Positions 900 to 62,521 of a stretch of DNA of 64,000 bases are shown here, one piece after another. The DNA is from Bacillota bacterium (GTDB lineage: Bacteria > Bacillota > Clostridia > Saccharofermentanales > Saccharofermentanaceae), in NCBI GenBank assembly GCA_036782995.1, contig DAIPXZ010000001.1, forward strand, positions 1 to 64,000. Reading direction: 5' to 3'. The position numbers and the translations under genes were made by a program. Positions within the stretch are counted from its first letter, which is position 1. Every line of letters begins with the position of its first letter. The notes beneath the pieces were generated by a model. The model made no database searches. It was not told where the DNA came from and saw only the letters and a list, made by a program, of their open reading frames with translations.

Positions 900-936
900 A
901 CATACGTTTGGAATCGCGGCAGTAGCAAATCTTTTC

Positions 937-1719: not shown

Positions 1720-1889
1720 TATAGCACCATGCCGCCTCGACGCGATTATTCACACGAATCACAGTATAACAGCCGCACTTCTTCCCTGTTCTTTATTGCT
1801 TTTTCTTTGCAAAGCACCGCTTCGACTGATGCTATCTCTCAATTTCTGGGGTAAAATAGTAGCGTATTGATTTTGGGAGGTACTTAACT

Positions 1890-45825: not shown

Positions 45826-47289
45826 TTAATCCATTACGGAATCAATGGCTTTTTTTATCTTCTTTATCTGTCTGCGGCCGAAAAACTTCATGTAATTGTA
45901 CGCTTTTCGTGTCCTGCCCTTCACATCGTTACGGAGCTCCGCCCCTTTAGAACGTAAATTAAGAACGTCGATGGCATCGAAAATATCTTCCGTCTCCGGT
46001 GAAATAAAGGCGTTATCCGATTCCGGACGACGCATGACCAATTTCGTGTAGCGTAATTTTCGTGGCTTAGGAATCTGACGCAAAGTGACTTTTCTCGATT
46101 CTTTTTCCAGAATATACCGGTCAATTGCACTCTTGTATGCATCTTCAACGCGCGATGCAAAGGTTTCCGACGAGAATGTTGCAACCGATTCCTTAGCATG
46201 TTCGCGATATCGCTTCAATGCATCTTCGTCGCTGAATAATTCTTCCATAATGGATGGAATGTCAGCTTCGTCGTCGAATAATCGCGAATTCTCTCCGTCA
46301 TGGAAAAGGACGTTTCCTGCGTCGTCGCGGCGAGCAACTACAGGTAGTCCCGCTGCCATTGCTTCATAATATGTGAGCCCCTGAGTCTCTGATGTGGAGC
46401 AAGAGATAAAAACATCTCCGAGCTGATAGTACTTACCTATCTCGGAATAAGGCGCCGAGCCCGCGAAAATGACATACGGAGTCGCATGCACGCTTGCAGC
46501 CAATTCTTTCAGTTCTTGAAGAGCCGGGCCATCACCAATGATGAGGAGGCGAGCTTCCGGAATCTTCTCCACAACAAACGGCATCTCTTCGACGATCATG
46601 TCTATGCTTTTCTCTTTCGCTATACGACCTAGGCTCAAGATGACCTTGTGCGAAGGTAACAGTCCATACTTACTTCGAAGAGTCGTAATCTCCGCATCTG
46701 CATACTTTTCACGTCGGAATGGCGAAAGATCTATTCCTGAAGGAATGACAAAAATCGGCTTCTGAACGCCATACGATTCGAGTGAATTCTTGACCTTTTC
46801 AGTCGGTACAATCAGCGCCGTAGGCAAATTACAGAATCGGCGGCTATACCACTCCGCCATTTCCGGTGTAATAATCTTCGTTACCTTGCCATTAAGAATG
46901 TAATGCGTATAATCAGCAAGCATCGTGTGATAGGTGTGAATAATCGGGAGATGCAATGTCGTCGCCGAAGAAAGTCCGACGAAGCCCATGGAAAACTCCG
47001 TCTGCGTGTGAATAATATCAATTCTCAATCGCTTTAATATCTGCATTAAACGTACCGAATATGGCATTGTCGTTCGATAAGGGCGAACCAATACCATCGG
47101 AATTGACGGAATGCGATAGACTGCCGGATTCTTGTTAACTTTCCGAATCGCGGTAGAAGATTTTTCCGATGTTGCAAAAATATAGACGCGGTGACCGCGT
47201 TTTTGCAAGGCCATCGCCAAAGTGTAAATCGATGATGTGACACCATTAATATCGGGGAAATAAGTATCTGTGATGATTGCGATATTCAT
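45826..47289 (-). CDS. GT4-family glycosyltransferase (glycolipid-synthase-like) with ~100-aa basic C-terminal extension
   Basis: The N-terminal sequence IAIITDTYFPDINGVTSSI and the EX7E-type C-terminal Rossmann domain are present. The extra C-terminal tail is rich in R/K. Confidence 0.8.
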   Translation of the reverse strand: MNIAIITDTYFPDINGVTSSIYTLAMALQKRGHRVYIFATSEKSSTAIRKVNKNPAVYRIPSIPMVLVRPYRTTMPYSVRLMQILKRLRIDIIHTQTEFSMGFVGLSSATTLHLPIIHTYHTMLADYTHYILNGKVTKIITPEMAEWYSRRFCNLPTALIVPTEKVKNSLESYGVQKPIFVIPSGIDLSPFRREKYADAEITTLRSKYGLLPSHKVILSLGRIAKEKSIDMIVEEMPFVVEKIPEARLLIIGDGPALQELKELAASVHATPYVIFAGSAPYSEIGKYYQLGDVFISCSTSETQGLTYYEAMAAGLPVVARRDDAGNVLFHDGENSRLFDDEADIPSIMEELFSDEDALKRYREHAKESVATFSSETFASRVEDAYKSAIDRYILEKESRKVTLRQIPKPRKLRYTKLVMRRPESDNAFISPETEDIFDAIDVLNLRSKGAELRNDVKGRTRKAYNYMKFFGRRQIKKIKKAIDSVMD

Positions 47290-47467
47290 TCGCTAAACCT
47301 CCTTCAATTCATCCCCTTTCCAAGCTTCCTGTATTATACCATGATGCTCCAATAAAAAGTGATTATCCTGTCACTTTGTTATTCTTGCCTATGATTGTAT
47401 GGCAAATAAAAGAACGACTTAAATCTGATAGAAAAGACAGTTTTCTGCTATTCGCTATTTTTATCAT

Positions 47468-47495
47468 TTGTTATACTGCTTGTATAAGATACAAT
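47468..47495 (+). promoter_or_regulatory. sigma-A-type promoter for GH1 gene (-35 TTGTTA, 16-nt spacer, -10 TACAAT)
   Basis: Seen at 47468-47473 and 47490-47495. An AGGAGGA RBS lies at 47511-47517 and the ATG at 47525. Confidence 0.4.
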
Positions 47496-47524
47496 CTATT
47501 TCTCATTGTTAGGAGGATAAGCGA

Positions 47525-48889
47525 ATGCCTTTTTCAAAGAATTTTATGTGGGGCGTTGCCTCTGCCGCATTTCAGCTCGAGGGAGCCTGGAATGAAGATG
47601 GTAAGGGGGCTTCGATCTGGGACACCTATCCACATGGCTATGACAACGTCGTAAAGTATAACGAGACAGCCGATGTCGCATGTGACCACTATCATCACAT
47701 GAAAGAAGATGTCGCCTTGTTGAAAGAAATGGGCGTGAAGAATTATCGATTCTCCATTTCCTGGCCGAGAATTTTGCCAAACGGCACAGGCGAGGTGAAT
47801 CCGAAGGGAATCGCATTCTACTCCGACTTAATTGACGAATTACTGAAAAACGACATTCAGCCGCTTGTTACGATTTTTCATTGGGATTTTCCACAAGCAC
47901 TTTACGATCGCGGTGGCTGGCTGAATCCCGATGTCGCAGAATGGTTTTCCGAATACACACGTGTTCTGGTTGATGCATTTTCCGATCGAGTCACTTATTG
48001 GATGACGATTAACGAACCGCAAATATTTGTCGGATCGGGTTACAAGATGGGGATGCATGCCCCATTCCTAAAGCTTCACGATCGAGATGTCGGAATCATT
48101 TCCAAAAACGTTTTGTTGGCACACGGTCGAGCTGTCCAAACGATTCGCGCATTTGCAAAGAAGAAACCGATGGTTTCTTTCGCGATAACCGGTCCGACAT
48201 TCGAACCGCTTTCCAATTCTCCCGAAGATATCGAGAGTGCACGCGAAATGTCTTTTGCGCTTCGTAAAGAGAATTACACTTTATCGAATTCATGGTGGGC
48301 CGATCCGATGATCCTCGGACATTTCCCACAGCAAGCATATGATGAGCTCGGCGATGCTATGCCGGTCATCTCCGCCGACGAATGGAAGATAATTACGGCT
48401 CCATTGGATTTTTACGGCACAAATATCTATAACCGCATCCCCCGTTTCGATAATGCCGGTTTTCATAACAAAGGCTTCGAGGGATTTGCGCGCACGGCAA
48501 ACCGTTGGGAAGTCACCCCGGATGTTCTCTATTGGTCGCCGAAGTTCCTTTATGAGCGCTATCACCTACCGATAATGATTACTGAGAACGGAATGGCAAA
48601 TTGCGATTGGGTACACTTGGACGGTACGGTCCCGGATGATGCAAGAATCGATTATACCACTCGTTATCTTCGTTCCTTTCATCGTGCTGAAGAAGAGGGA
48701 ATTCCACTTGTCGGATATATGCACTGGTCCTTTATGGATAATTTTGAATGGGCAGAGGGATACGATATGCGTTTCGGTCTTGTCCATGTTGATTATCAAA
48801 CACAAAAGCGCACGCTGAAAAAATCTGCCTATTGGTATAAGGATGTCATGGCGACGAACGGCGATCGTGCATTACTACATGATAACTAA
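47525..48889 (+). CDS. GH1 beta-glucosidase / 6-phospho-beta-glucosidase
   Basis: It has the GH1 N-terminal signature FMWGVASAAFQLEGAW, the acid/base motif TINEP, and the nucleophile motif ITENGMA. Confidence 0.9.
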   Translation: MPFSKNFMWGVASAAFQLEGAWNEDGKGASIWDTYPHGYDNVVKYNETADVACDHYHHMKEDVALLKEMGVKNYRFSISWPRILPNGTGEVNPKGIAFYSDLIDELLKNDIQPLVTIFHWDFPQALYDRGGWLNPDVAEWFSEYTRVLVDAFSDRVTYWMTINEPQIFVGSGYKMGMHAPFLKLHDRDVGIISKNVLLAHGRAVQTIRAFAKKKPMVSFAITGPTFEPLSNSPEDIESAREMSFALRKENYTLSNSWWADPMILGHFPQQAYDELGDAMPVISADEWKIITAPLDFYGTNIYNRIPRFDNAGFHNKGFEGFARTANRWEVTPDVLYWSPKFLYERYHLPIMITENGMANCDWVHLDGTVPDDARIDYTTRYLRSFHRAEEEGIPLVGYMHWSFMDNFEWAEGYDMRFGLVHVDYQTQKRTLKKSAYWYKDVMATNGDRALLHDN

Positions 48890-48965
48890 GTTCTTCCATT
48901 CATACTGGCTATCGTTTACGTGACATTCTAGGACGATTATGTTGCCTATAATGCAGTAAATAAAG

Positions 48966-49058
48966 AGCAAAAGCATGAGAACCTTAGGTTAGCTTCTCCT
49001 CCAAGAGAATCGCCTGCTTCCTGGGTTCACGTGCTTTTGCTTTATTCTTTGCTTTTTT
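48966..49058 (+). terminator. candidate terminator (long imperfect stem, T-rich tail) between convergent GH1 and PPK2 genes
   Basis: agcaaaagcatgagaacc pairs with ggttcacgtgcttttgct (16 of 18 positions) across a 39-nt loop, followed by ttattctttgctttttta. Confidence 0.3.
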
Positions 49059-49067
49059 ATGTAAATG

Positions 49068-50534
49068 TTACAACACCGGCTTTTCGAGTGCATTCTCCAA
49101 TGCATCGATGATGATCTCGATGGTTTTTACGCGGGCATAAAGCTTATCATTGCCTTCAATAATATGCCAGGGCGCATATTCCGTCGATGTTTTCTGTAGC
49201 ATATCATTGACGGCCTCTTCGTATGCATCCCATTTCTCGCGGTTACGCCAATCTTCGTCTGTGATCTTCCATTGCTTTTCAGGTGTTTCTTGGCGTTCGT
49301 TGAAACGAGCAAGCTGGACGTCTTTATCAATTTGAAGCCAAAATTTTATCACGATTGTGCCTTCCGATGCCAACTGATATTCAAATTCATTCATTTCACG
49401 GTAGGCGCGTTTCCATTCCTTTTGATCGCAAAAGCCTTCTATGCGTTCTACCATAACACGCCCGTACCACGTACGGTCAAAAAGTGCTATATGCCCGGTT
49501 TTCGGCATTTTCTCCCAGAAACGCCATAAATAATGGCGATTCTTTTCTGGTGGGGTCGGCGATGCAACAGGATTTACTTCATATCCGCGTGCATCGAGTG
49601 CTTGCGTCACGCGTTTTATGGCACCACCCTTCCCTGCTGCGTCCCATCCTTCAAAAAGCAAGACGACGGGGATGTGGCGGGCGTAGATGTGATTATGAAG
49701 CTCACGCAGACGTTTCTGATCCTTTTTCAGACGCTCCTCGTAGTCTTCGCGGGGTAGCGCAAGAGATAGGTCAACCTCGTGTAGAAGCGGCATAGATATC
49801 GGCTTCGGGAGTTTCGGTACATATTTTGCAACCGCTTTCTTGTCGATTCCGTTGTGCAAACGATCGGAGATGGCGTCGATTAAATAGCGAAGTGCGTAGA
49901 ATTCACTGATAAGTGGTTTTTTCGCTTCGATAACATGCCATGGAGCAAAAGGCGAATCCGTCTTTTCCATTATTTCTTGGTAAGCCGCCTTAACTTCGCA
50001 ATAGTTCTTCGCTTCCCATGCATCATGCTCTGAAACCCGCCATGCGGTTGCTTGGTCAGCGAGCAGGCGATTGAGTCTGCATTTCTGTTCATCTTCATCG
50101 ATATTCAGGAAGATTTTCACTAAAAGATATCCGTTTTCAGTCAATGACCGCTCAAATTGCTTAACAAATTCGATACGACGCTTATATGTATCTGACGTGA
50201 TGCTTCGTTCCAAATTTGAAGTAGCTAGAATTGACGGCCATCCGCTATCTAGGAACGTGAACTTTCCTTGTTCAGGAATGGTTCGAAAATAGCGATAAAG
50301 AAAGTGTCTTCTCGTTTCTTCCGGACTCGGACGATCCATAGAACAGACGCGATAAAAGCGCGGATCGATACAAGTAATTAAGCGATTAATCAATGAACCC
50401 TTGCCCGATGCGGCAAAGCCTTCCACGAGAACAAATACTGAAATCCCCGCCTTTTTGATTTCCTGTTGTAGAGTAAGGAGTTCTCCTTGCATTTCTGAAA
50501 TTTCTGCCTTCATCTGCTTTTTTTCTTCACGCAT
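49068..50534 (-). CDS. two-domain polyphosphate kinase 2 (class II PPK2 / polyphosphate:AMP phosphotransferase-like)
   Basis: It has two tandem PPK2 domains, each with a Walker-A-like motif (EGFAASGKGS and EGWDAAGKGG). The start was set at MREEKKQ (ATG at 50534; RBS AAGGAGGT 8 nt upstream), which overlaps the upstream gene's stop by 8 nt. Confidence 0.85.
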   Translation of the reverse strand: MREEKKQMKAEISEMQGELLTLQQEIKKAGISVFVLVEGFAASGKGSLINRLITCIDPRFYRVCSMDRPSPEETRRHFLYRYFRTIPEQGKFTFLDSGWPSILATSNLERSITSDTYKRRIEFVKQFERSLTENGYLLVKIFLNIDEDEQKCRLNRLLADQATAWRVSEHDAWEAKNYCEVKAAYQEIMEKTDSPFAPWHVIEAKKPLISEFYALRYLIDAISDRLHNGIDKKAVAKYVPKLPKPISMPLLHEVDLSLALPREDYEERLKKDQKRLRELHNHIYARHIPVVLLFEGWDAAGKGGAIKRVTQALDARGYEVNPVASPTPPEKNRHYLWRFWEKMPKTGHIALFDRTWYGRVMVERIEGFCDQKEWKRAYREMNEFEYQLASEGTIVIKFWLQIDKDVQLARFNERQETPEKQWKITDEDWRNREKWDAYEEAVNDMLQKTSTEYAPWHIIEGNDKLYARVKTIEIIIDALENALEKPVL

Positions 50535-51678
50535 ACGATTGTACCTCCTTGTACTTCTCATCGACTCGATTCATTAATTCGAGTTCATCAAGGATTTCCC
50601 CTTGATATGGGTACGTATTCCTCATGCTCTCGAATTGTTCACGTATGTTTTGGGCGTCATTCGTATTATTGTCCTCGAGTAACGCCTTCGCATATTGATA
50701 GCGCAAAACGGTAGGATTTTCCTTCATCTTCTGAATGAAGTCCATTGTTGTTTTTGATAAAAAAGAGTTCCGTTCATCTTTGGGCTGTTCGGTAAGCAAT
50801 GAAAGGTAGGTTAACTCCATATCGATAAAGGCACCTATTATTCCGCTTCTTGGTATCTCCGTATGATTATGAAGCCACTTTAGTTTTTCATAAGCTTCAT
50901 CTAATCGACCATTGATGATGTAATAGCAACAACTGTTTACGTATTGCGTGGTAATTATTGCTGTCGTCATCTCTTTTTCCGTAGGAAAAAAGTAATTGGC
51001 TTCGTCTATATCTTTCATGCGAGCATCTTCAGCGTATTCCGCAAGTGTAATCATCTGTGTGTAGAATACACGAATCATCAATGGGTTACGTTTACAGGCC
51101 AAGATATTCGCTCCGTCGTTATTCAACATTTTGCCGGAAAACGGAATGCCATTTATTACGGCAGGAATCAACGCCATTGCCGCAGCAGTGATAAAAAACG
51201 CACGGCTAATCGGTGCAATCGGCAAGAGACAGAGTCCGCCAAATATACCGGCACACAACATGTTCATGAGCACTCCGCCGAGTTGATAAAGATTAATCGG
51301 ATTTTTTCCGTTCTCTTGATATAGCGGTGGTTTCATTAAGCATTGACCCGCCGTTCCGGTAAGCTTATATTTCTTGATCGCGAGCTTTCCATTCTTCTTT
51401 ATCCAAACAGTATTGTATACTCGGAAGCTTATAAAAGAATATCCGGAAATCAAGCCCGCAAACAAGTGTCCTAGTTCATGGAGAACAAGTTGAATATTAT
51501 ACAAAACAATGCTGACCATACAAAAGACAAGCGTAACCAAGAAACCATGTGTTCCAATAGAATTCGGATATGCCCCCTTTATGATCGCATTGATTATCAT
51601 CATCGAGCCAAAGTAGATGATTACCAATATTGTGCATATAAGAAAACAATTCACTGCATTGATTTTCTTTGATTCCAT
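50527..51678 (-). CDS. membrane-embedded HExxH zincin-like protein (DUF3267/S2P-like N-terminal half) with cytoplasmic helical C-terminal domain
   Basis: HELGH lies inside a predicted TM helix (LVLHELGHLFAGLISGY). There are 4-5 TM helices in the first ~190 aa, then a ~190-aa soluble helical domain. An AAGGAG RBS is present. Confidence 0.55.
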   Translation of the reverse strand: MESKKINAVNCFLICTILVIIYFGSMMIINAIIKGAYPNSIGTHGFLVTLVFCMVSIVLYNIQLVLHELGHLFAGLISGYSFISFRVYNTVWIKKNGKLAIKKYKLTGTAGQCLMKPPLYQENGKNPINLYQLGGVLMNMLCAGIFGGLCLLPIAPISRAFFITAAAMALIPAVINGIPFSGKMLNNDGANILACKRNPLMIRVFYTQMITLAEYAEDARMKDIDEANYFFPTEKEMTTAIITTQYVNSCCYYIINGRLDEAYEKLKWLHNHTEIPRSGIIGAFIDMELTYLSLLTEQPKDERNSFLSKTTMDFIQKMKENPTVLRYQYAKALLEDNNTNDAQNIREQFESMRNTYPYQGEILDELELMNRVDEKYKEVQSYA

Positions 51679-51714
51679 AAATACTCCTTATTGCACAAGT
51701 CTCGAACTTGTAGC

Positions 51715-53187
51715 TTATTCGGAAGACGCATCGGAGGTCGTTTTTTTGAACGGGGAGGGTCCTTCACTGTCAAATTCGGGAATATCCTCCAATCCGATTT
51801 CCAACGCAACGTCCATCGCCGATTTTGCCGGAGCTTTAGGGATATTGCTTCCAAGACTACGATCCGTTGCCGGGAAGAAGCCGGAGCCTCTTCCGAGCTG
51901 TTGACTACGTGCTTGATCAATGGATAGATAGATTTCCGAATGCTTTTCGGGGAGAGGTACAGGGGCACTCGGAATGTTGACTTGCCTTTCCAAGGCAAAT
52001 TTATCACTGTCAACACCATGATACGCTTCTTCAACATTTTTTTGATTTACAACAACCTTGGCTGGCGCAACACGTACATTTCTTTCCATGCGAATCAGAA
52101 CCTTGTCCACAGCATTTTCATTCATCGCTATATCGATTAATGCAGACGAGTTCGGAATGTCGAGGTATGCACGGCATTCCGAAGGACGATAGATGGGGCG
52201 TGAAGACGCAATCCTTCCGTTAACCGCATTCATCAGCCAATGGAATGGCTTTCCCTTCACAGTAGTTTTTATCTGCCAATAAGGGAAGTAGGTTAAGATG
52301 CCAAGGCTTTCCTCGTATTTCGACTGGTCGACATAGGACACAACCGCCGATTCTTTTTCTTCCTCACTAACCCAGATGCCGCGCACCCACAGCTTGATAT
52401 GGGCAATTAAATCATCCATGATTTCCTGACCCGACCGGTTAGGCATGACGAAAATAGCGTTATTCTTATCGACCGAATCAAAGTCTTTGCTCATCGAAAA
52501 GGAATATGGGCCAATATCATCAAACGAATCGTTACTGATATAGTCCGAAGCAGGGATTGGGATGTCGTTAAAGCGGAATTGTCCTCCGACATTTCGATCG
52601 ACATAATAACCATCTGTCGAAGACATCGGACGCATAATAGCCGTGTTCTCGACTCTCTTTTGGTTATCATTTTTGTACGTTGTAGGTACTTTTTCAGCCA
52701 AATTCTTGGTGACAATCGCACTGGTAAATGCTTCATAATCAAAGATATAAACAGGCAAGTACGTTTTCACCATCATTTCAGCGAGCTTGGTGTATTTTCC
52801 GGAAAGAAAGAACTTTTCCTTCATGGATTTTTCAAAAGCTTCCTTCGCTTCGTTCGCATCGACGTAAAATGGTACGATTTGTTGAGCCTTGGGAAAAGGG
52901 TGTTGTTTATTGTCGACCTTCGGCACTCTTTCTTTTCCGCAAACAATACAGGTCGAACGGGCGGAAGATAAATCCGTTTCCGAAAACATTATCGTCTTAC
53001 ATTGAGGACACTCATAAGAATAATAATCTCGCAACGCGCTGTATTCCGGGAAATAAAAACCACCGTCTACCTTTTCCACTTGATTCTCTGGCAAAAGCGG
53101 CGTATGACAAAACACGCATTCGTATTTATCGTGCGTGTTTGTAATAACATTAGCATGACATTTGGGGCATGCAAACGCAATATCCAT
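51715..53187 (-). CDS. cytoplasmic tandem-zinc-ribbon protein, paralog A (unknown family)
   Basis: 490 aa. The N-terminal sequence MDIAFACPKCHANV...YECVFCHT...YECPQCKT...CIVCG has four CxxC pairs (two zinc ribbons). A ~350-aa domain follows that is conserved with the 1337-aa neighbour, then the C-terminal motif DIPEFDSEGPSPFKK. An AGGAGTG RBS is present. No TM helix or signal peptide. Confidence 0.7.
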   Translation of the reverse strand: MDIAFACPKCHANVITNTHDKYECVFCHTPLLPENQVEKVDGGFYFPEYSALRDYYSYECPQCKTIMFSETDLSSARSTCIVCGKERVPKVDNKQHPFPKAQQIVPFYVDANEAKEAFEKSMKEKFFLSGKYTKLAEMMVKTYLPVYIFDYEAFTSAIVTKNLAEKVPTTYKNDNQKRVENTAIMRPMSSTDGYYVDRNVGGQFRFNDIPIPASDYISNDSFDDIGPYSFSMSKDFDSVDKNNAIFVMPNRSGQEIMDDLIAHIKLWVRGIWVSEEEKESAVVSYVDQSKYEESLGILTYFPYWQIKTTVKGKPFHWLMNAVNGRIASSRPIYRPSECRAYLDIPNSSALIDIAMNENAVDKVLIRMERNVRVAPAKVVVNQKNVEEAYHGVDSDKFALERQVNIPSAPVPLPEKHSEIYLSIDQARSQQLGRGSGFFPATDRSLGSNIPKAPAKSAMDVALEIGLEDIPEFDSEGPSPFKKTTSDASSE

Positions 53188-53256
53188 AACAATTCACTCC
53201 TATCATTCAGACGGTAAGGATGAAAAGTCTTCGTTTGAGAATGCTCGAAAGAATGA

Positions 53257-56200
53257 TTATCTTTCCCGTCTTATCGGTTTCTTGGCAAATGGGCTTGGTC
53301 CATTCGGATCAAACTTCGGAATATCGCTTAACGAACGACGAGCCGCCGCTTCCTCTTCAACGATTCCTTTGCGAATTGGATCCATTCCGCCATATGCTAG
53401 CGATGGGATCGGTCGTTCGCCGCCGTATCTTGGTAATCCTTCATCCTCAGGCGGTCGTGTACCCGTGGCGACCGGTTGTGCTGTTTCTTGCAAAGTTGTT
53501 CCTGTCGGATGTTCTGTCAAATTGCTCTCTTCTACTGTTCTGCTACCAGGACGCAGCATCACCGCAGCCATGTTTGTATTCTCCACATTGATGGTCGATT
53601 CTTTTACCGAAAATGCCGGCAGAACTTCTTCGTCCTGTTCGCGATTGCTTTCTTCGACGTCAGCCGTATGAATGGTCATCGGTACCGAGCGTGTATACTC
53701 AACCGGTTCTTCAACGGGCTGTTCCGCCTTTGGAGCAAATACGGGCGCATCCTCACTTGATGCTTTGAAAGCCGCTTGGACATTGGCCTGACGTGCCGCT
53801 TCTTCTAATGCGCGTCTCTCGCGATATGTGCGTGGACGATCGCTCGAGAATGTAATTGGAGAAGATTCATCCTCGGTGCCACGAACAGAAGTATTTACTG
53901 TTTCATCGAGCGTCGTATTCGGACGTAATGCTGAACCCGGACGTGTTGCGGCCGGTTCATTTGCGGAGGACGAAGAAGTCGATGGCTGTTTATCTTCGTC
54001 AATCGTTAACTCTTCCTTCTGATGTAATGGCATTTCTCCACCGCGGCTTGTTGCTGAATGATCGGCAGCAGCAAGAACACTATTGTTTCTCGGTTTTTCA
54101 ACATTAATTACGATATCTTGTGGCTTTGCAAAACGAGGTTTCGTATCTTCTGGTTCAGGCAATCCCGTTGATGGTGATGCCCATGTCGGAATCGGTCGAT
54201 CACTACGAATTGAACGCTCCCAAATCGGTACGGACTTCGAAGAATTCTCTTCTTGGCTTCTATGTCCACGCATGGCAGGACCACTAGTTGCTTGTGCCGC
54301 CGTCGTTGACGCTTGCGTTTCTTCCTGTGATACGCTTCTGCGCGATGCAAAAGGAGAAATCGAATCTTCCGGTCTTCCCCATGTCGGAGGCGGCGTAATT
54401 GCAGATGAAAGAGGACTACGGCTTACGGAAGACGTATCCGTTTTTGGAGTCGAAGGTGCATTGGTTGCTACCGTCGGACGGCTCGTCGTGGAATCACTAC
54501 GCGTTGACGTTCCAGGACGAGAAGCTGCCCCCGGTCGCGTCGCAGCAACGGATTCACGTGATGTCGTCGGTTCTGATGCCGAAGTCGCTTGCACTGGAGC
54601 TTTATGTTGTAATGTCGAATCTTGTGATGCCGGCACAGACATATTCGGGCGTGGCGGACGCTTTATCTGTCCGTTTTGACCAACAGTTGTAGCGGACGCA
54701 CTTGTTTTTTTTGCCCAGTCGGGTGTCTCTCCCGCTGGCATTTCACCCCAAATTGGTTTGCGTGGCATATGAATTGAATCATCTTCTGATGGTGTTGAAA
54801 CAGAACGAGCCATTTGCGCAAGCGGAGATGGTTCACGCGGAGCAAGAGGCTTCGAAACAGGCTTCGGTGTTGGCAAGACATCTTCGTCTTTCTCAACCAT
54901 AGGAAGTGGCATGTGCTTTTCTTCTTCGATAATCGGAGCCTTCTTCTCCATGAAAGAAAGAGAAAGGTGTTGCTCTTCCTTTTCAAACGTATCAGCGCCG
55001 ACAGGTGTCACTTCTTCCTTCATCGGGAGTGGTTGTGATGTTGTTTTCGGTGTCGTGGCTTTCTTGGCCTGCAAAACGATATCATCCGCTTTCTCAACCG
55101 CCGATTTAGTCTTACGTGACTTATCGGGTACGATATCATCCGCAGATTCAACGATGCCCTTCTTGGTAGTCGACTTTAATGAATCATCGGTATCATTGTC
55201 TGCACGTGATACAGTAGTCGTCGCGTTTTTCTCTTCCGTACTCGGTTGTTCCATCGCGGCTTCACGACGCTTCAGCTCTCTAAGTGCGCTGAGTGGCAAG
55301 GAATTGATTGTCTCGGCATCCAAATCAGCAAGAGTCAAGCCATCCAGATTCATCAATGGAGATGCTATTTGCGTAGACTGTACATCCGACATATTCGAAA
55401 TATATGCGGACTCCCACGCTGGATGGTTTTGTTCCATAGTCTTCGACGAGGAAAGAGTCGATGCCGGAGCTTGAACGGCTTCGATTGGTTGCTCTTCTTC
55501 ACCATTCACCTTCGCCTTCATGCTGGATACTTTCTTTTCCGGAACATGTGCACCAAATGCGTTCACGCTTGCGTCTTGCGGGCGATCCCATACCGGTACC
55601 TGTGTTTCTTTTTTCTCGATGGCAGGCTTCTTTGTTCGAACGGTACGATTGCTGTTTGGAACAGCGACCTCCGTCGGCTTCGAGTTCTTCGCCCACGCCG
55701 GTGCTTCCACTGCAGCTTTCATCTCGCCCGGATTTTCCTTGGCTGCTGCTTTAATGGCAGCTGGTCGAGTAATCGGTTCCAGTTTCTTTTTCTGAGGCAT
55801 CTTCGTTAAATCGCTAATATTGGTCACAATCGGAATATCAAGAAGTGGCGCACCCTCTGGGCGATTTGCCGCTTCAGCACGACGTTTTTCCATTGCCTCA
55901 GCGCGTTTCTTCGCCTCTTCATCTGCCTTAATGTCTGCCTCCGTTGCGGTGTGAACCATCAACTGCGCATCAAAATCATCCGGCTTCTTTGGTTTTCTTG
56001 TTTTCGGCTTCTCAAAGAAGGAGTAATCAAGAATTTCGTGCGCTGGATTATATAGATCGAACTCAAAGTGTGTGTCCTTCAATGCCGTACAGCGGTCCAT
56101 ATTGGCATATTCGTGATATCCGGTCTTGTCATTTTGTGATGCGACCTTCGCCATCGGAATATTTGCCTCGACGACACCGTTTTGAGCATTCATGGCATAG

Positions 56201-57183
56201 TGGAACTCTCTTCCTAAGTATTCGCCTCGCATAGCCCAAATCGGTAAGAGGACAAGTTCTCCGATACCAAGTGGATAATCGGTCTTATCAGAATAGAAGG
56301 AAATATCGTATTGCACAGAATGTGCGTCATATATCATTTGACGGGTCCATTTCTTGATGCGCCCCATGAACTCTTGCATCATTGAAATCGCATCTTTATA
56401 TGTCGCTACGACCGGAACATCACCCAATGCCGTTGTCGTAACCGGGACCATCTTAGAAAAATCATATGGTTGAATGTTGCGAACCGTATTGTCAGGTAAA
56501 CATCCAGTCGCGTCAAAAGGTACGCCCATCCATGATAAAACACCACCTGTGATTCTTTCGGTCGGTAGTTCCTGCGTCTCTTTGACACCGCGAAGGCTAT
56601 TATTAATCTTTTTAAAAGAAGAACGAAGCGGCATCATCAGCTCTTTTAATTGTTCCGGAGCCGCCGTGTCCAAGATTGATTGCGTAGGAATATGCTTCAA
56701 CATTGCGGTGAGTCGCACGTTCGCTAATACTTCGTAGTTAAATATCCAACACGGAACATAGACCTTCTTTAGAAGGGCCTTGTTCTCATCAGTTACCAGT
56801 GCACGTCCGACAGCCGAGTTATTTCGACAGTATTCTTCAAAAACGCTTTCCGCTTTTTGTCGATTGTAGGAAAACAGAATCATTCGACGTGGCATCGCCC
56901 CTAGCGCCGGGCCCTTATCCGTAAGCTTCGAAACACCACAAAGTGGGCAATCCATCTTTTGACCATCTGCTACTCTTGCGAATACCTGACCACCGCATTC
57001 TTCACAGGTAAATGAATGATAAGCCTTTTCGTCCCATGCTTCACTAACGTAATATCCGCCTTCCAATTCAAGAACTTCATCTGCCGGTGTTAAATCGGTA
57101 TGGCAAAAACAGCAACGATATTTCTTCGACTCATCAAAAATCAAATCCGCCGAGCAATTCGGACAATGAAATGCTATATCCAT
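53257..57183 (-). CDS. cytoplasmic tandem-zinc-ribbon protein, paralog B, with ~820-aa intrinsically disordered P/S/T/A/E-rich region
   Basis: The start was set at MDIAFHCPNCSADL (ATG at 57183, AGGAGGG RBS). Two zinc ribbons (CPNC..CCFCHT..CEECGG..CPLCG) are followed by a domain homologous to paralog A (e.g. VYVPCWIFNYEV matching YLPVYIFDYEA). A long low-complexity region follows, with repeated hydrophobic-Pro-x-Trp and ATRPGxxxRP motifs. The C-terminus is DIPKFDPNGPSPFAKK. Confidence 0.7.
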   Translation of the reverse strand: MDIAFHCPNCSADLIFDESKKYRCCFCHTDLTPADEVLELEGGYYVSEAWDEKAYHSFTCEECGGQVFARVADGQKMDCPLCGVSKLTDKGPALGAMPRRMILFSYNRQKAESVFEEYCRNNSAVGRALVTDENKALLKKVYVPCWIFNYEVLANVRLTAMLKHIPTQSILDTAAPEQLKELMMPLRSSFKKINNSLRGVKETQELPTERITGGVLSWMGVPFDATGCLPDNTVRNIQPYDFSKMVPVTTTALGDVPVVATYKDAISMMQEFMGRIKKWTRQMIYDAHSVQYDISFYSDKTDYPLGIGELVLLPIWAMRGEYLGREFHYAMNAQNGVVEANIPMAKVASQNDKTGYHEYANMDRCTALKDTHFEFDLYNPAHEILDYSFFEKPKTRKPKKPDDFDAQLMVHTATEADIKADEEAKKRAEAMEKRRAEAANRPEGAPLLDIPIVTNISDLTKMPQKKKLEPITRPAAIKAAAKENPGEMKAAVEAPAWAKNSKPTEVAVPNSNRTVRTKKPAIEKKETQVPVWDRPQDASVNAFGAHVPEKKVSSMKAKVNGEEEQPIEAVQAPASTLSSSKTMEQNHPAWESAYISNMSDVQSTQIASPLMNLDGLTLADLDAETINSLPLSALRELKRREAAMEQPSTEEKNATTTVSRADNDTDDSLKSTTKKGIVESADDIVPDKSRKTKSAVEKADDIVLQAKKATTPKTTSQPLPMKEEVTPVGADTFEKEEQHLSLSFMEKKAPIIEEEKHMPLPMVEKDEDVLPTPKPVSKPLAPREPSPLAQMARSVSTPSEDDSIHMPRKPIWGEMPAGETPDWAKKTSASATTVGQNGQIKRPPRPNMSVPASQDSTLQHKAPVQATSASEPTTSRESVAATRPGAASRPGTSTRSDSTTSRPTVATNAPSTPKTDTSSVSRSPLSSAITPPPTWGRPEDSISPFASRRSVSQEETQASTTAAQATSGPAMRGHRSQEENSSKSVPIWERSIRSDRPIPTWASPSTGLPEPEDTKPRFAKPQDIVINVEKPRNNSVLAAADHSATSRGGEMPLHQKEELTIDEDKQPSTSSSSANEPAATRPGSALRPNTTLDETVNTSVRGTEDESSPITFSSDRPRTYRERRALEEAARQANVQAAFKASSEDAPVFAPKAEQPVEEPVEYTRSVPMTIHTADVEESNREQDEEVLPAFSVKESTINVENTNMAAVMLRPGSRTVEESNLTEHPTGTTLQETAQPVATGTRPPEDEGLPRYGGERPIPSLAYGGMDPIRKGIVEEEAAARRSLSDIPKFDPNGPSPFAKKPIRRER

Positions 57184-57340
57184 GTTGGGTTTATCCCTCC
57201 TGTCGCGAAAGCGTGATCGCCTTACTGAGGCCTTCGCTAACGATATCTCTACTAGAGCAATTATAGTCAAACTATAATATAAAGGGTGAACGGATTATTG
57301 TCAATTATTTTTTGTTATTTACGAGTGCTGTAAAGTGTCA

Positions 57341-58270
57341 TTAAACAAAAATAATCGAACAAAAGAATATCATTATTGGCAACGTTATCACCATCAAAAG
57401 CATGCTTTGCACGACCGAGCGCGCCGCGAATTTCGGTGCGCAATTGTATTTTTCGGAAAAGATAACGTTCATCGAGCCACATGGCAAAGCACACATCAAC
57501 ACAATGACAGCGGCTGTAGTTGGCATAATCGGAACAAGGCGATACAGAATAAACATGGCAAGAAGAGCTAGTCCCGGAATGATAACCAATCGCATTAACG
57601 AAGTCACGTATGCTTTCACGTCACTTATCACCTTGAGAAATGGCAAGGTCGCGATAGACGAGCCGATGATAATCATGGAAAGCGGAATTGTCATTGCCCC
57701 AATATCGGCAACTGGGTCGACAATGATTTCCGGCAAACGGAAAGGCGAGATGAATAGTGCAATCGCCGCGACCGATGCAATCGTCACCGGGTTTAGAATC
57801 AATTGACGAAGCTCGCCCTTCTTCCCACTGACAAGATGAATACCATAGGTGTACATAAATAAGTTATATACCATATTAAATATTACGGCGAGTAATAAGC
57901 CTCTTTCTCCGTAAAGTGCATACATCAAAGGAAATCCGACAAATCCTGTGTTCGCAAAAACCGTCATCGTCACAAAGATGCGCTTCTCGTCGTCTTCAAG
58001 CGGGAGCTTCTTGCTTAATTTCCGCATGAGTACCAATGTCACGGCGTAATAACACATTGCAGCCGCACCCGTCGCCAGCATAGCCTTGACGAGCTCAATA
58101 GAATAATCATAATTTGCAGAAGAAATAATGCTGAATGGCAAGATTGCCTTTAAAAGCAATTCGGAAAGACCTTTTTGAATTCTCTCGTCAATCACGCGAA
58201 ATTTGCGAAGACAAATACCAAGTGACACCATGATAGCAAGTTTAACAATCACATATAGCAAAGCGGTCAT
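57341..58270 (-). CDS. AEC-family (auxin efflux carrier / malate-permease-like) transporter
   Basis: 309 aa with 10 TM helices and a typical AEC N-terminus. Confidence 0.8.
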   Translation of the reverse strand: MTALLYVIVKLAIMVSLGICLRKFRVIDERIQKGLSELLLKAILPFSIISSANYDYSIELVKAMLATGAAAMCYYAVTLVLMRKLSKKLPLEDDEKRIFVTMTVFANTGFVGFPLMYALYGERGLLLAVIFNMVYNLFMYTYGIHLVSGKKGELRQLILNPVTIASVAAIALFISPFRLPEIIVDPVADIGAMTIPLSMIIIGSSIATLPFLKVISDVKAYVTSLMRLVIIPGLALLAMFILYRLVPIMPTTAAVIVLMCALPCGSMNVIFSEKYNCAPKFAARSVVQSMLLMVITLPIMIFFCSIIFV

Positions 58271-58345
58271 GAAAAAACTCCTTTTTCGGCTTCATTCGTC
58301 TCGGCACATACAGTCGATTATTTCGGTCGTTCCTGCCAATCGTTC

Positions 58346-59857
58346 TTATTGATCGGCCCACTTACCAGAACGTGCCACCGCGCGATTCCAAAGGTCGATG
58401 AGACGATTTTTCTCGGTCGCCTTCATATTCGGCACGAAAAGCTTATCACATGTCCTCAAGTGCCGCAATTCATCTGTCCCTTGCCAATATCCACAAGAAA
58501 TTCCGGCCATATAGGCAGCTCCTTGAGCAGTTGTTTCACGCTCACGAGGACGATCTACGGGCACATCTAGAATATCCGCCTGAAATTGCATCAAAAACGC
58601 ACTGACACTCGCGCCACCATCCACACGAAGTGAAGTAACGGCGAAGCCGGAATCTTTTTTCATAAGCTCGATGAGATCATACACTTGGTACGCAATCGCT
58701 TCAAGGCATGCACGTGCAATATGCGCTTTTCCTGTACCGCGTGTTAATCCGACAATCGTTCCGCGTGCATACATATCCCAATAAGGTGCACCAAGGCCGG
58801 AAAAGGCCGGTACCAGATACACACCAGCATTATCTTCGACCGATTCGGCAAGCGTATCACATTCCGAAGCACGCGAAATCATCTGCATTTCGTCTCTTAG
58901 CCATTGAATTGTGGAGCCACCATTAAAAACACTGCCTTCAAGAGCGTAGGTGGTTTTCCCGTTTAGTGTCCAAGCGGCTGACGTAAGAAGGCCGTTTTCG
59001 GAGGAAACGATATTCTCACCTGTATTCATGAGGCAAAAGCAACCCGTTCCATACGTGTTTTTCAGATCGCCGGGGTCAAGTGCCATTTGCCCGAAAAGCG
59101 CGGCAGGCTGATCGCCAATAACCGCACAAATACCAACACCGGCAAGACTTTCAATGCCAATAATGCCTTCCGTTACTGTGCCAAAATCAGAAGCCGACGG
59201 CTGCGCCTCCGGAAGCAGGTTCATCGGGATACCAAAAAGCGCACATAGCTCCGCATCCCACGATAATGTATGTATATTAAAGAGCATTGTACGAGAAGCA
59301 TTGGAATAATCGGTTGCATGTGATTTGCCACCGGTTAATCGATATATGAGCCAGGCGTCCACGTTACCGAACATTAACTCCCCTGCATCGGCCATGAGCC
59401 GTGCCCCTGGCACTTCATCGAGAATCCATTTTATCTTTGAAGCAGAAAAATAAGCGTCCATAACCAGGCCGGTCTTGGCCTTAACCTCTGCCTCTCGCCC
59501 TTCTTTTTTGAGCGTTTCGCATAGCGATGCCGTACGACGGCACTGCCAAACAATCGCGGGATAAATTGGTTTCCCGGTTTTCGCAGACCACACAATAGTC
59601 GTTTCTCTTTGGTTTGTTATGCCAATGCCAGCCACGTCGTGTCCCGTAATTCCGGCGGCGCCAAGTGCGCGATCGATAGCGGTGATGGTCGTGACCCACA
59701 AATCGTCGGGATCATGCTCGACCCAGCCCGGCTTCGGATAATGCTGGGCAAATGACTCCTGCCCGACACCGACAGCCTCGCCTTGGTGATTGAAAATGAT
59801 GCATCGTGAGCTTGTTGTTCCCTGATCAATGGCCAAAATAAACTTTTCCATGGTCAC
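58346..59857 (-). CDS. glpK: glycerol kinase
   Basis: The N-terminal FILAIDQGTTSSRCIIFNHQGE is the canonical FGGY/GlpK start. The precise start codon is GTG at 59857 or ATG at 59851. Confidence 0.9.
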   Translation of the reverse strand: MTMEKFILAIDQGTTSSRCIIFNHQGEAVGVGQESFAQHYPKPGWVEHDPDDLWVTTITAIDRALGAAGITGHDVAGIGITNQRETTIVWSAKTGKPIYPAIVWQCRRTASLCETLKKEGREAEVKAKTGLVMDAYFSASKIKWILDEVPGARLMADAGELMFGNVDAWLIYRLTGGKSHATDYSNASRTMLFNIHTLSWDAELCALFGIPMNLLPEAQPSASDFGTVTEGIIGIESLAGVGICAVIGDQPAALFGQMALDPGDLKNTYGTGCFCLMNTGENIVSSENGLLTSAAWTLNGKTTYALEGSVFNGGSTIQWLRDEMQMISRASECDTLAESVEDNAGVYLVPAFSGLGAPYWDMYARGTIVGLTRGTGKAHIARACLEAIAYQVYDLIELMKKDSGFAVTSLRVDGGASVSAFLMQFQADILDVPVDRPRERETTAQGAAYMAGISCGYWQGTDELRHLRTCDKLFVPNMKATEKNRLIDLWNRAVARSGKWADQ

Positions 59858-59895
59858 CTCGTCTCTGCTTCCGCGTCCGGATTCTTCGAGATTGT

Positions 59896-61404
59896 TTACT
59901 GCTGACAGCGCTTATAAATCGTATTCAATTCTTTTAACCATGCAATATTGATTTGTTTGAGTCCTTCCGTTCCAAAACGCACTCGCCAGTTACCTGTTGG
60001 TGTACCCGGTGTATTCATGCGCGTATCCGCACCGTACCCAAGTAAATCCTGCACCGGTACTACGGCAAGTGACGCGGCACTACTCCACACCGATGTAATC
60101 AACGCATGCAGGCTCAATCCTGAAGGTCCACCCTCGCCCCAATTTTTTCCGTCGAATCGGCAATATTTCAAAGCAAAGTTTCGGTCTGTTTCGGACGCTT
60201 CCCAAAGCCATCCCAGAATGGTGTTGTTATCGTGTGTCCCCGTGTAGGCCACGCAATTTTTCGGATAGTTATGTGGTAGATGTTTACTATCATCATATGG
60301 ATTGAATCCAAATTGCAAGACTCGCATGGTCGCAAATCCGGTCTCTTCGAGAAAGGCTTCCAGTTCCGGTGTCATTTCACCTAAGTCTTCGGCAAAAATC
60401 GGCGCGTCCTTGAAAACTTCACCAATTTTGTTGAAAAGCTTCATACCCGGGCCTTGCTTCCATTCGCCTTCTCGTGCTGTTTTTGCATCGGCAGGAATCG
60501 AATAGTAGGATGAAAATGCGCGGAAATGATCAATTCGGAGAAGGTCGTAATGTAGGAAGTTTTGTTTCAAACGTGCAATCCACCATGAATAGCCCGTTCT
60601 CTCATGTTCATCCCAGTCATAAATCGGATTGCCCCAGAGCTGACCATCTTTGGCAAAATAATCCGGCGGTACACCGGCAACTTGCGAGAAACGACCCTTT
60701 TCGTCCGTCAGGAAAAGGGAACGATTCGCCCATACATCGCTGCTGTCTGCCGACACATATATCGGGATGTCACCGATGATTTTGATACCTATATCGTTGA
60801 TTTCGCGTTTCAGCTCCGTCCATTGCGTATAAAAGACGTATTGAATGAAGCAATAGAACCAAAATAGGTCACGGTGGCGCTCTTCAAAAATTGCGAGAGC
60901 ATCTTCATCGTGTGCGGAAAGAAAAGAATCGGACCAATCCCACCATGCCTTGTCACCCTCTGTGGACTTTATGGCTTGATAGAGTGCGACATCCTTTAGC
61001 CATGGATTAGCTCCGGCAAATTCGTAAACACAGATGAATTTCTTTTCATCGAGTCGAGAGTATGCCTGACGTAGCATGGTCATTCGATTTTCGCGAACAA
61101 ATGCGTAATCGACCGCGTACGGCGAACCGGAATAGCGGCACGCATCCTTTTCCTCACAGGAAAGAAGACCCGCTTCGAAAAGCTGTCTCGGATCAATAAG
61201 TAAGGGGCTGCCTGCAAATGCCGAATCACTCTGATAAGGTGAATCTCCCGAGCCTGGGTTGGTGAAAGGCAATACCTGCCAGTATGTAAATCCCGCTTCT
61301 TTCAGTATTTTTGCAAATCCGACAGCTTCGTCTCCGAATCCGCCAATACCGTATTCACCAGGCAATGATGTAATGTGCATTAGGCATCCTGAACTTCTTT
61401 TCAT
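59896..61404 (-). CDS. malQ: 4-alpha-glucanotransferase (amylomaltase, GH77)
   Basis: The start was set at MKRSSGCLMHITSLPG (GGGAGGAA RBS); this is the typical MalQ N-terminus. GH77 motifs are present throughout. Confidence 0.9.
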   Translation of the reverse strand: MKRSSGCLMHITSLPGEYGIGGFGDEAVGFAKILKEAGFTYWQVLPFTNPGSGDSPYQSDSAFAGSPLLIDPRQLFEAGLLSCEEKDACRYSGSPYAVDYAFVRENRMTMLRQAYSRLDEKKFICVYEFAGANPWLKDVALYQAIKSTEGDKAWWDWSDSFLSAHDEDALAIFEERHRDLFWFYCFIQYVFYTQWTELKREINDIGIKIIGDIPIYVSADSSDVWANRSLFLTDEKGRFSQVAGVPPDYFAKDGQLWGNPIYDWDEHERTGYSWWIARLKQNFLHYDLLRIDHFRAFSSYYSIPADAKTAREGEWKQGPGMKLFNKIGEVFKDAPIFAEDLGEMTPELEAFLEETGFATMRVLQFGFNPYDDSKHLPHNYPKNCVAYTGTHDNNTILGWLWEASETDRNFALKYCRFDGKNWGEGGPSGLSLHALITSVWSSAASLAVVPVQDLLGYGADTRMNTPGTPTGNWRVRFGTEGLKQINIAWLKELNTIYKRCQQ

Positions 61405-61411
61405 GAAATTA

Positions 61412-62383
61412 TTATTCCTCCCGATTTCGAACATAGACTAGTTTGATTTGTGGATTTTTATCATTTGTACGGTGCTCATATTCGACCCAGTCGAGAGATT
61501 GTACCATTTTGGACATTTTTGCGAACCCGTAGTTTCTGGAATCAAATGACGGGCTCTTCTTATTGATGAGGTTACCGACATCTCCCAAGAAGGCCCAGCC
61601 CTCTTCATCTGCCAGATCAGCGATTGAAGAAGCAATCAATTCAATCGTCGCTTCGTCAATTTTGAGAATGGAACGTTCCTCATCTTTGACGATAAAGCCT
61701 GTCGAGGATTCTCTTTCGGCGATATCGGATGTATTCTCTTTATCGTCTTTGTCCTTTTTCGTCTTGCGTGACGTCTTTAATGAGCGTTTGGTCGCTTTTA
61801 CGGCATTCTTTCCCACTGTAGCTTCTGATTTAGCAGAAACAGAATCGTTCGTGGATTGCTTCACTTCAGTTTTATCAACGTCTTTGCTCTTCACGGTCTT
61901 CATCAACAGACCGAGACGTCCCGGCACAGGGCTTTTGCGCGTGTGCGTTTCCAGAATCTCAAGGAAAATGAAGCGATCACAAGCGGCAACGAAAGCCGTC
62001 GGCGTTTTCTTTTCACCAATACCATATACTATTTTTCCTGCTTCACGAAGGCGTGTCGCGAGTCGCGTGAAGTCGCTGTCGCTCGAAACAAGGCAGAAGC
62101 CATCGACCTTTTCCGTATACAATATATCCATTGCATCAATGATGAGTGTCGAGTCCGTCGCATTCTTTCCCGTCGTATAACCAAATTGCTGTACAGGCGA
62201 AATAGCGTGATCCAAAAGGACCGTTTTCCATGGGCCAAGCTGGGGTTTTGTCCAGTCTCCGTATATTCTTTTGATTGTAGGATTGCCATATCGAGCGATT
62301 TCAAGCATCATGGGTTTGATGTAATTCGCGGAGATATTGTCCGCGTCAATCAAAACTGCCAGACGCACGTCTTTTCCGGCCAT
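61412..62383 (-). CDS. NYN-domain (LabA/limkain-type) protein with C-terminal OST-HTH/LOTUS domain
   Basis: The start was set at MAGKDVRLAVLIDADN (RBS GAGGAAGGA). The NYN core is VLIDADNISANYI...GKNATDSTLIIDAMD...DSDFTRL. A K/D-rich linker leads to the C-terminal OST-HTH-like domain (...GFAKMSKMVQSLDWVEY). Confidence 0.8.
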   Translation of the reverse strand: MAGKDVRLAVLIDADNISANYIKPMMLEIARYGNPTIKRIYGDWTKPQLGPWKTVLLDHAISPVQQFGYTTGKNATDSTLIIDAMDILYTEKVDGFCLVSSDSDFTRLATRLREAGKIVYGIGEKKTPTAFVAACDRFIFLEILETHTRKSPVPGRLGLLMKTVKSKDVDKTEVKQSTNDSVSAKSEATVGKNAVKATKRSLKTSRKTKKDKDDKENTSDIAERESSTGFIVKDEERSILKIDEATIELIASSIADLADEEGWAFLGDVGNLINKKSPSFDSRNYGFAKMSKMVQSLDWVEYEHRTNDKNPQIKLVYVRNREE

Positions 62384-62521
62384 AATTCCTTCCTCTCTTC
62401 TTGCCATAATCAATACTAGGCTGATATAATAGGCAAGTTGCGCGAGTATTGTTTTGCGCCACATTTAATTATAACGTAATTTAGTTTTCTTGCCCACACC
62501 GATAACGAAAGAGGCCTGACT

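Follow-up and report, generated by a model that had tools for sequence, protein, structure and literature searches.

The 64,000-nucleotide stretch analysed here (the window) comprises positions 1 to 64,000 of contig DAIPXZ010000001.1, assembly GCA_036782995.1, from a Bacillota bacterium of the Saccharofermentanaceae. Its minus strand carries a gene (53257..57183, stop codon included) whose product joins a folded zinc-ribbon head, homologous to YdjG/SamG of Bacillus subtilis, to a long tail that is predicted to be disordered and contains conserved tryptophan-centred motifs. The product has 1308 amino acid residues counted from the ATG at 57183 (MDIAFHCPNC), which is preceded by a GGAGGG ribosome-binding site. 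In the list of open reading frames (ORFs) the start was a TTG at 57270; all orthologs begin at the equivalent of the ATG, with MDIAFHCPNC or MEIAFHCPNC. A promoter-like site, TTGACA-17-TATATT, located at 57276..57304 with 11 of 12 consensus matches and identified by consensus match only, covers the TTG. Residues 1-393 form the head, which is hydrophobic and conserved, and residues 394-1308 form the tail. The promoter-like site and the parts of the long protein, of its downstream paralog and of the two genes after the paralog that are located below all lie on the minus strand. The only Pfam match of the long protein was a sub-threshold RNHCP zinc ribbon. Four plus-strand ORFs of 169-198 residues overlap the gene (53162..55809, plus strand); the frame conserved in 30 orthologs is that of the minus strand.

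The tail (53260..56004, about 915 residues) is predicted to be disordered according to FoldIndex, composition and the drift of its linkers. It is rich in A, P, S, E and T, with 19% hydrophobic residues compared to 38% in the head, and the charge-hydropathy index of FoldIndex is below zero at 84% of tail residues compared to 12% of head residues. Around 28% of the residues are charged, the net charge is −0.015, and the 915 residues include 8 Trp, 12 Phe and 5 Tyr. The original prediction had placed a disordered region of about 820 residues at 53310-55780; this holds, although the limits were drawn too short, missing the first 75 or so residues of the tail and its last 17. Tandem Repeats Finder detected no DNA tandem repeats in the gene, therefore the tail is not a recent expansion, and its length across orthologs is 897-1065 residues. 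The ATRPG-type and SPF repeats that had also been listed as elements are free in number among orthologs, with 5 to 22 copies of RP(G/A) tracts and 0 to 5 of SPF; these repeats are linker composition, with the exception of the C-terminal GPSPF, which is invariant.

The ortholog set, obtained by a search of a large protein collection, contains 30 proteins: 29 have 1294-1458 residues, and one, truncated at the N-terminus, has 1319. They come from Clostridia metagenome-assembled genomes (MAGs) of the ruminant gut. A scan of species-representative genomes located the gene in about 25 genomes from yak, buffalo, sheep and reindeer rumen, whose taxon labels are Clostridiales, Oscillospiraceae, Ruminococcaceae and 'Mageeibacillus sp.'. 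The window protein is the most divergent of the 30-sequence alignment; its identity to the others is 56-60% over the head and 11% over the linkers.

All eight Trp residues of the tail (W497, W532, W590, W812, W823, W935, W988 and W1001) have Pro at position −2. With a Pro content of 10.5%, the probability of this pattern by chance is 1.5e-8, and none of 20,000 composition-preserving shuffles reached eight. The eight W motifs quoted in the original prediction are all present in the translated protein; their description as starting with a hydrophobic residue before Pro does not hold, since V, K, T, P and A all occur at position −3. At position +2 after Trp, 139 of 224 cases have K or R. Six of the eight Trp (W497, W532, W812, W823, W988 and W1001) are invariant in the alignment of the 30 orthologs, and five of these six also have a −2 Pro that is fully or almost invariant, while only 61 of the 915 tail columns are invariant (Fisher p 1.7e-6). 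Pairwise identity averages 0.76 both in the head and in the islands and 0.29 in the linkers, that is, the W motifs are kept while their surroundings drift, the outcome by which a functional array had been proposed to be recognised. Neither orthologs lacking the motifs nor a variable region, which would have argued for neutral change, were found. The motifs had also been called periodic; instead, they form three tight pairs with variable linkers between them. Spacing within the pairs is 35-41 residues for W497/W532, 11-12 for W812/W823 and 13-14 for W988/W1001, and successive pairs are separated by variable stretches of 280-419 and 81-222 residues. Three flank types, each present twice, were distinguished: [AVT]P[SA]WAK, [KV]P[LI]WE[KR] and a W-G type (RWGEMPE, PAWGSS). 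Around the Trp residues, conservation extends to polar and charged flanks, for example E-M-P-E-A-K-E-T-P.

From the head towards the C-terminus, the first pair consists of the W497 island (55669..55752; EAPAWAKNS in the window protein and AAxxPSWAKAVTPPP in the ortholog consensus) and the W532 island (55582..55602; QVPVWDR, consensus NKP[LI]WE[KR]), in both of which Trp and its −2 Pro are invariant in 30 of 30 sequences. W590 (HPAWESA, 55414..55416) is lineage-specific, with Trp in that alignment column in only nine of the 30 orthologs. Two copies of a Pro/Leu/Ala island (54811..54984, residues 734-751 and 773-791, column conservation 0.79-0.83) show the ortholog consensus N[DN]RPLAxRPxAPLA, here degraded to MEKKAPI and SKPLAPREPSPLAQ. 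The double-Trp island of W812 and W823 (54706..54753; KPIWGEMPAGETPDWAKK, consensus RWGEMPEAKETPSWAKPQ) contains two invariant Trp and reaches a column conservation of 0.91, the maximum of the tail. W935 (PPTWGRPED, 54379..54381) is also lineage-specific, being unique to this genome, and is followed by a conserved SPF[AR] element (ISPFASRR). Both Trp are again invariant in the island of W988 and W1001 (54175..54231; VPIWERSIRSDRPIPTWAS, consensus VPIWERVPETDGPxPAWGS), and downstream of it lies the island RPRGSLxKPKDQIIDVEKPRE (54079..54138; PRFAKPQDIVINVEKPRNNS in the window protein), with P1016, K1020, P1021, I1026, V1028, E1029, K1030, P1031 and R1032 invariant. A charged island, RPRT[FY]AQRRQMEEEERRRQIQ (53776..53835; PRTYRERRALEEAARQANVQ in the window protein, also given as the RPRTFAQRRQMEEEERRRQIQ stretch), has a column conservation of 0.85 and is probably helical, judging from its sequence. 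The tail closes with the motif [DE][IL]P[DEK][FY]DPxGP[SN]PF (53284..53331; LSDIPKFDPNGPSPFA in the window protein, the motif being also written LPDFDPDGPSPF), in which D1292, P1293, G1295, P1296, P1298 and F1299 are invariant. This C-terminal motif is common to the long protein, the paralog encoded downstream of it and P0036, a family member with transmembrane (TM) segments. A profile of a double-Trp island (A5, 61 columns) used in a word-indexed search recovered one ortholog fragment and none of the 30 known full-length orthologs, and is thus uninformative on occurrence elsewhere.

The head shows the anatomy described for YdjG, which has two Cys4 zinc ribbons followed by a YpeB/PepSY-like alpha+beta domain (PMC11237479). 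Zinc ribbon 1 spans residues 1-30 (57094..57183), with C7, C10, C24 and C27 invariant or nearly so in alignments A1, A2 and A4, and zinc ribbon 2 spans residues 56-86 (56926..57018), with C60, C63, C79 and C82 invariant across 111 family members and weak Pfam and NCBIfam zinc-ribbon matches; both ribbons are conserved in the three alignments. The YpeB-related (NTF2/PepSY-like) alpha+beta core that follows them, at residues ~97-345 (56149..56895), is predicted to consist of two modules, each with a helix packed on an antiparallel sheet. The structure of the head was modelled with AF2 using a 111-sequence alignment. Foldseek of this model against PDB gave nothing (best E 2.1), a sequence-profile search of PDB gave no match, and Pfam, NCBIfam, PADLOC and PHROGs gave weak zinc-ribbon matches only. 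The Pfam PepSY model had no above-threshold match, and family members match zinc-ribbon models only.

At E ≤ 0.001, an exhaustive profile search recovered 3634 representative proteins. Most of them have about 350 residues, and in these proteins the same head is directly followed by a C-terminal hydrophobic helix. To compare them with YdjG, the B. subtilis gene was reached through the ydjG forward primer of PMC8581546, which led to a B. subtilis metagenome contig from which ydjG-ydjH-ydjI was read off. The family profile A4 aligned with B. subtilis YdjG in hhalign with a probability of 100% (E 1.2e-84, 337 columns), and the head of the window protein matched it directly with E 6e-23 over 349 residues in BLASTP and E 5e-20 in phmmer, at an identity of only 21%. 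Furthermore, with B. subtilis YdjG as query the long protein and the neighbour downstream of it were both recovered from all related loci. These alignments to the family profile, to the head in the window and to all related loci identify the head of the long protein as a YdjG/SamG-family domain. This had not been recognised in the original prediction, and neither had the fact that the tail stands where the family normally has its membrane anchor; both change the functional frame of the protein. In B. subtilis, YdjG, a zinc-ribbon membrane protein, and YdjH are the membrane components required to recruit YdjI, an SPFH protein, and PspA, an ESCRT-III homolog, to the membrane (PMC8581546; bioRxiv 10.64898/2026.02.06.704340), and a role in sensing or signalling envelope stress has been proposed for YdjG/YdjH (PMC8581546; PMC9239133; bioRxiv 10.64898/2026.02.06.704340).

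Some family members are fusions that include a second membrane segment and a TPM-like domain whose tail is Gly-rich, and on a Frisingicoccus contig a TPM_phosphatase gene directly follows the family member. Several YdjG-TPM fusions (P0039, P0069, P0123, P0130 and P0176), TPM (YdjH-type) proteins and B. subtilis YdjG itself have a Gly-rich C-terminus ending in Phe (GGGF, RGSF, GGRGF, GGGRKF); coordinates among these cases are 477..2266 in locus L033 and 7067..8383 in locus L030. Such an end may serve the YdjG/YdjH system as a terminal docking motif, and the GPSPF end of the two proteins in the window may be its counterpart.

The C-terminal TM anchor usual in YdjG/SamG is missing from both the long protein and its paralog. 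For the long protein and the paralog the highest 19-residue Kyte-Doolittle means were 1.04 and 0.85, respectively, compared to 1.56 for the YdjG helix, and neither a membrane helix in any ortholog of the long protein nor a TM-like stretch in the tail was found. The TM-less clade has thus lost the C-terminal membrane helix. A secreted or cell-wall linker protein was considered and ruled out by the lack of a signal peptide or TM segment, by the Cys4 ribbons and by the homology to the ZnR-bearing N-terminal, non-membrane part of YdjG. Between core and tail, residues 350-393 (56005..56136) form an extension of about 40 residues specific to the TM-less subfamily, RCTALxDTHFEF...ILDYSFFEKPK, many columns of which are invariant in A1. 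It is not present in the family members of about 350 residues, which end there in a hydrophobic helix, and its pLDDT (predicted local distance difference test) in the head model is low because the alignment used lacked that segment. This aromatic-rich extension is found in the long proteins alone, with a related CR[TA]Y...D segment in the paralog. In place of the lost helix, the extension could form a small element that folds or binds a partner.

The downstream paralog (51715..53187, 490 residues) consists of a TM-less YdjG-like head and a short tail ending in IPEFDSEGPSPFKK, with the terminal motif at 51742..51792. It matches the long protein with E 3e-38 in BLASTP and B. subtilis YdjG with E 7.5e-11 in phmmer, and a word-indexed search with the paralog recovered the paralog alone. 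Across the clade it has about 500 residues; its short tail has no Trp. The two genes are adjacent in every locus with enough DNA (about 25 species-level genomes), and they constitute a conserved gene pair. P0036 (529 residues), which is YdjG-like, keeps its membrane segments and ends in DLPEFDPGGPNPFAKK, the terminal motif of the TM-less pair, which may therefore predate the loss of the anchor; P0036 looks like an evolutionary intermediate.

Synteny was examined in the L001 and L003 loci and at 45826..62464 of the window, and comprises NYN/OST-HTH, MalQ, GlpK, Mem_trans, the gene pair, GH1 and an MGlcDAG-synthase-like GT4, to which the orthologous loci add an EAL gene and a PLD-family (cardiolipin-synthase-like) gene. 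Several of these neighbours are glycerol or membrane-lipid genes. A GNAT acetyltransferase is encoded just upstream of the long gene in orthologs and is missing from the window. A defence-system or phage origin of the locus is unsupported, as it lies in conserved housekeeping synteny and the libraries gave weak zinc-ribbon matches only.

Trp is the most order-promoting residue, and six invariant Trp in a tail of around 900 residues therefore point clearly to a function that mutation could probe. The islands are under purifying selection, and the tail motifs are very probably a selected array of short linear motifs (SLiMs), as judged by conservation of Trp and islands; the proposal of a functional SLiM array in a cytoplasmic zinc-ribbon protein is thereby supported. 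Our model is that in an uncultured clade of ruminant-gut Clostridia a YdjG/SamG-family gene would have been duplicated in tandem, both copies losing the C-terminal membrane helix and one of them gaining a flexible tail of about 900 residues. In this way, a YdjG-type head would be uncoupled from the membrane and joined, through a long flexible spacer, to specific docking sites. The tail would most likely be a multivalent docking hub, in which variable Pro- and charge-rich linkers would be the spacers and about a dozen conserved short islands, among them the three Trp-motif pairs of fixed spacing built from P-S-W-A-K, P-[LI]-W-E-[KR] and W-G types, each used twice, would bind partner proteins specifically. 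The C-terminal DFDPxGPSPF motif, common to the co-operonic paralog, would dock both proteins to one partner. Conservation of polar flanks, fixed spacing within pairs and the double occurrence of each motif type favour protein docking over generic lipid or sticker contacts, and suit dimeric or oligomeric partners. From these features we infer that the islands bind proteins rather than lipid and that the repeated motif classes engage oligomeric partners; by analogy with YdjG, the pathway would be related to membrane or envelope stress. In the complete reading, which we favour with moderate confidence, the protein would be a soluble docking hub that descends from a membrane-stress adaptor and retains a membrane-stress-related function.

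The Trp motifs could instead re-anchor the protein to the membrane: with Trp followed by Ala/Gly and Lys/Arg, they would act as weak interfacial lipid anchors, six or more of which would jointly hold the TM-less head at the cytoplasmic membrane face and replace the helix that normally ends YdjG/SamG proteins and that this clade does not have. The general preference of Trp for the membrane interface, the K or R at +2 in 139 of 224 cases and the presence of lipid genes among the conserved neighbours (MGlcDAG-synthase-like GT4, PLD-family protein, glycerol kinase) are consistent with such a role. However, none of the motifs is an amphipathic helix, there is one aromatic residue per motif, next to helix-breaking Pro and in many cases to acidic residues (PIWERVPE, RWGEMPE), and the flanks of the motifs are conserved residue by residue, which lipid binding does not need. 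Furthermore, the short paralog is also TM-less and yet has no tail Trp, and we regard re-anchoring as unlikely. Selection on exact positions, spacing and flanks, rather than on composition, also argues against the condensate scaffold suggested in the original prediction, in which Trp and Arg would be stickers on a long flexible chain that drives phase separation, forming a membraneless compartment instead of binding one-to-one partners. The low-complexity chain is long and rich in P, S, T, E and R, with about 28% charged residues and a net charge near zero, and its aromatic motifs and RP(G/A) tracts are repeated, all of which would suit a condensate; nevertheless, the 915 residues offer few aromatic side chains (8 Trp, 12 Phe, 5 Tyr) for aromatic-driven condensation, and orthologs may have anything from 5 to 22 RP(G/A) tracts, which makes a scaffold of this kind improbable.

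Regulation within the protein or the pair would have the Trp islands fold back on the PepSY/NTF2-like grooves of their own head or that of the paralog, as autoinhibitory or assembly elements, instead of recruiting clients from outside; binding to the paralog had already been considered in the original prediction. NTF2/PepSY-like folds often offer a groove for a ligand or peptide, the gene pair is strictly conserved and the terminal motif is common to both proteins; nonetheless, about a dozen different islands exceed what one or two heads could plausibly bind, and we give this explanation a low probability. Neutral low-complexity expansion, with a Trp pattern arising by chance or through codon or repeat history, would agree with the biased composition, the variable linkers and the variable number of RP(G/A) tracts. 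It is contradicted by the ortholog comparison, in which six Trp are invariant in 30 orthologs (p 1.7e-6) and the islands are as strongly conserved as the folded head, and further by the failure of all 20,000 shuffles to match the PxW count, the lack of tandem DNA repeats and the conserved tail length, so that it is scarcely credible.

Several observations weigh against the docking-hub model. The estimate of disorder comes from the charge-hydropathy index alone, with values near the boundary (mean −0.076), and some islands, for example VANITFSF, could fold or add a strand to a partner instead of acting as classic linear motifs. All members come from uncultured MAGs. Moreover, searches of the 64-kb window and of the 6-8 kb flanks at related loci (phmmer and a TPM profile, loci L001-L029) detected no homolog of PspA, TPM/YdjH or SPFH/YdjI. 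The usual family context, an operon or fusion with TPM-domain YdjH, SPFH YdjI and PspA, is therefore missing from the window and the loci examined, and the link to a Psp-type pathway is drawn from head homology alone.

Among known systems, YdjG/SamG of the B. subtilis pspA-ydjGHI (pspA-samGHI) operon is homologous to the head over the whole length of the head and is likewise cytoplasmic, and the wider family is associated with other membrane-linked partners, such as TPM domains. The long protein differs from it in having no TM helix, in its disordered motif tail of ~915 residues, in the tandem duplication of its gene and in the absence of pspA, ydjH and ydjI nearby. In its mode of action the tail most resembles, by analogy, disordered scaffolds with conserved microdomains such as RNase E's C-terminal domain (CTD), with which it shares a long region predicted to be disordered (by a simple index) and short conserved islands within fast-evolving linkers. 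In the RNase E CTD, microdomains or SLiMs within the disordered region recruit partners (PMC4435900, PMC11964227). The sequence and the folded domain of RNase E are nevertheless unrelated to those of the long protein, its partners are known, and it has amphipathic membrane-targeting and RNA-binding Arg-rich segments, none of which were identified in the long protein. In eukaryotes, Trp-motif hubs such as the GW182 W-motifs/Ago hooks, the W-acidic motifs that bind kinesin light chain and the DPW/WxxF adaptor motifs place Trp-centred motifs with small or acidic flanks in a disordered chain. Here the likeness is one of resemblance only: multiple Trp motifs occur, and two pairs of the long protein are spaced by ~11-14 residues, which would suit tandem Trp pockets, whereas the host is a bacterium, the consensus has Pro at −2 and there is no homology.

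Literature searches gave no description of a YdjG variant with a Trp-motif tail or of Trp-based linear motifs in a bacterial protein, and nothing direct on the family name or on the combination of zinc ribbon and PepSY. What is new here is the identity of the head as YdjG/SamG together with the exchange of the membrane anchor for a tail. In bacteria, long disordered regions that contain conserved linear motifs are a rarity and little charted, and for the YdjG/SamG family, which has thousands of members, experimental work was found only in B. subtilis; a natural variant with a tether for an anchor could show what the YdjG/SamG head does and what it must connect to. A bolder version, which we put forward as speculative and doubtful, would make this the first Trp-based SLiM system in bacteria, a soluble YdjG-derived adaptor whose paired Trp motifs on a ~900-residue tether, much like those of GW182 or of eukaryotic endocytic adaptors, capture and cluster an oligomeric machine that remodels or organises membranes (PspA/ESCRT-III, an SPFH cage or a TPM complex), with regulated multivalent docking replacing the fixed anchor. 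With uncultured rumen Clostridia as carriers, the immediate value lies in a well-defined hypothesis and a set of peptides rather than in a solved mechanism.

Downstream of the gene pair, the same-strand string of genes continues with a membrane protein of 383 residues (50527..51678) containing an HELGH motif and a weak, sub-threshold Peptidase_M50B-like match. Its gene begins 36 nt after the paralog, overlaps the start of the next gene by 35 nt and is an insertion specific to this genome. The string ends with that next gene, encoding a two-domain polyphosphate kinase 2 (PPK2) of 497 residues (49068..50561; Pfam PPK2 E 2e-136, two matched stretches). Neither this kinase nor the HExxH membrane protein was retained as a candidate partner, both being absent from the orthologous loci and outside the conserved unit. 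Finally, on the plus strand, 43913..45774 encodes a HisKA_3 histidine kinase and a NarL/LuxR-type response regulator that are not found at that position in orthologous loci. This kinase/regulator pair, of a two-component class that includes the envelope-stress system LiaSR, adjoins the GT4 glycolipid-synthase-like gene (45826..47289) and a gene encoding a YfhO membrane protein (38832..41426).

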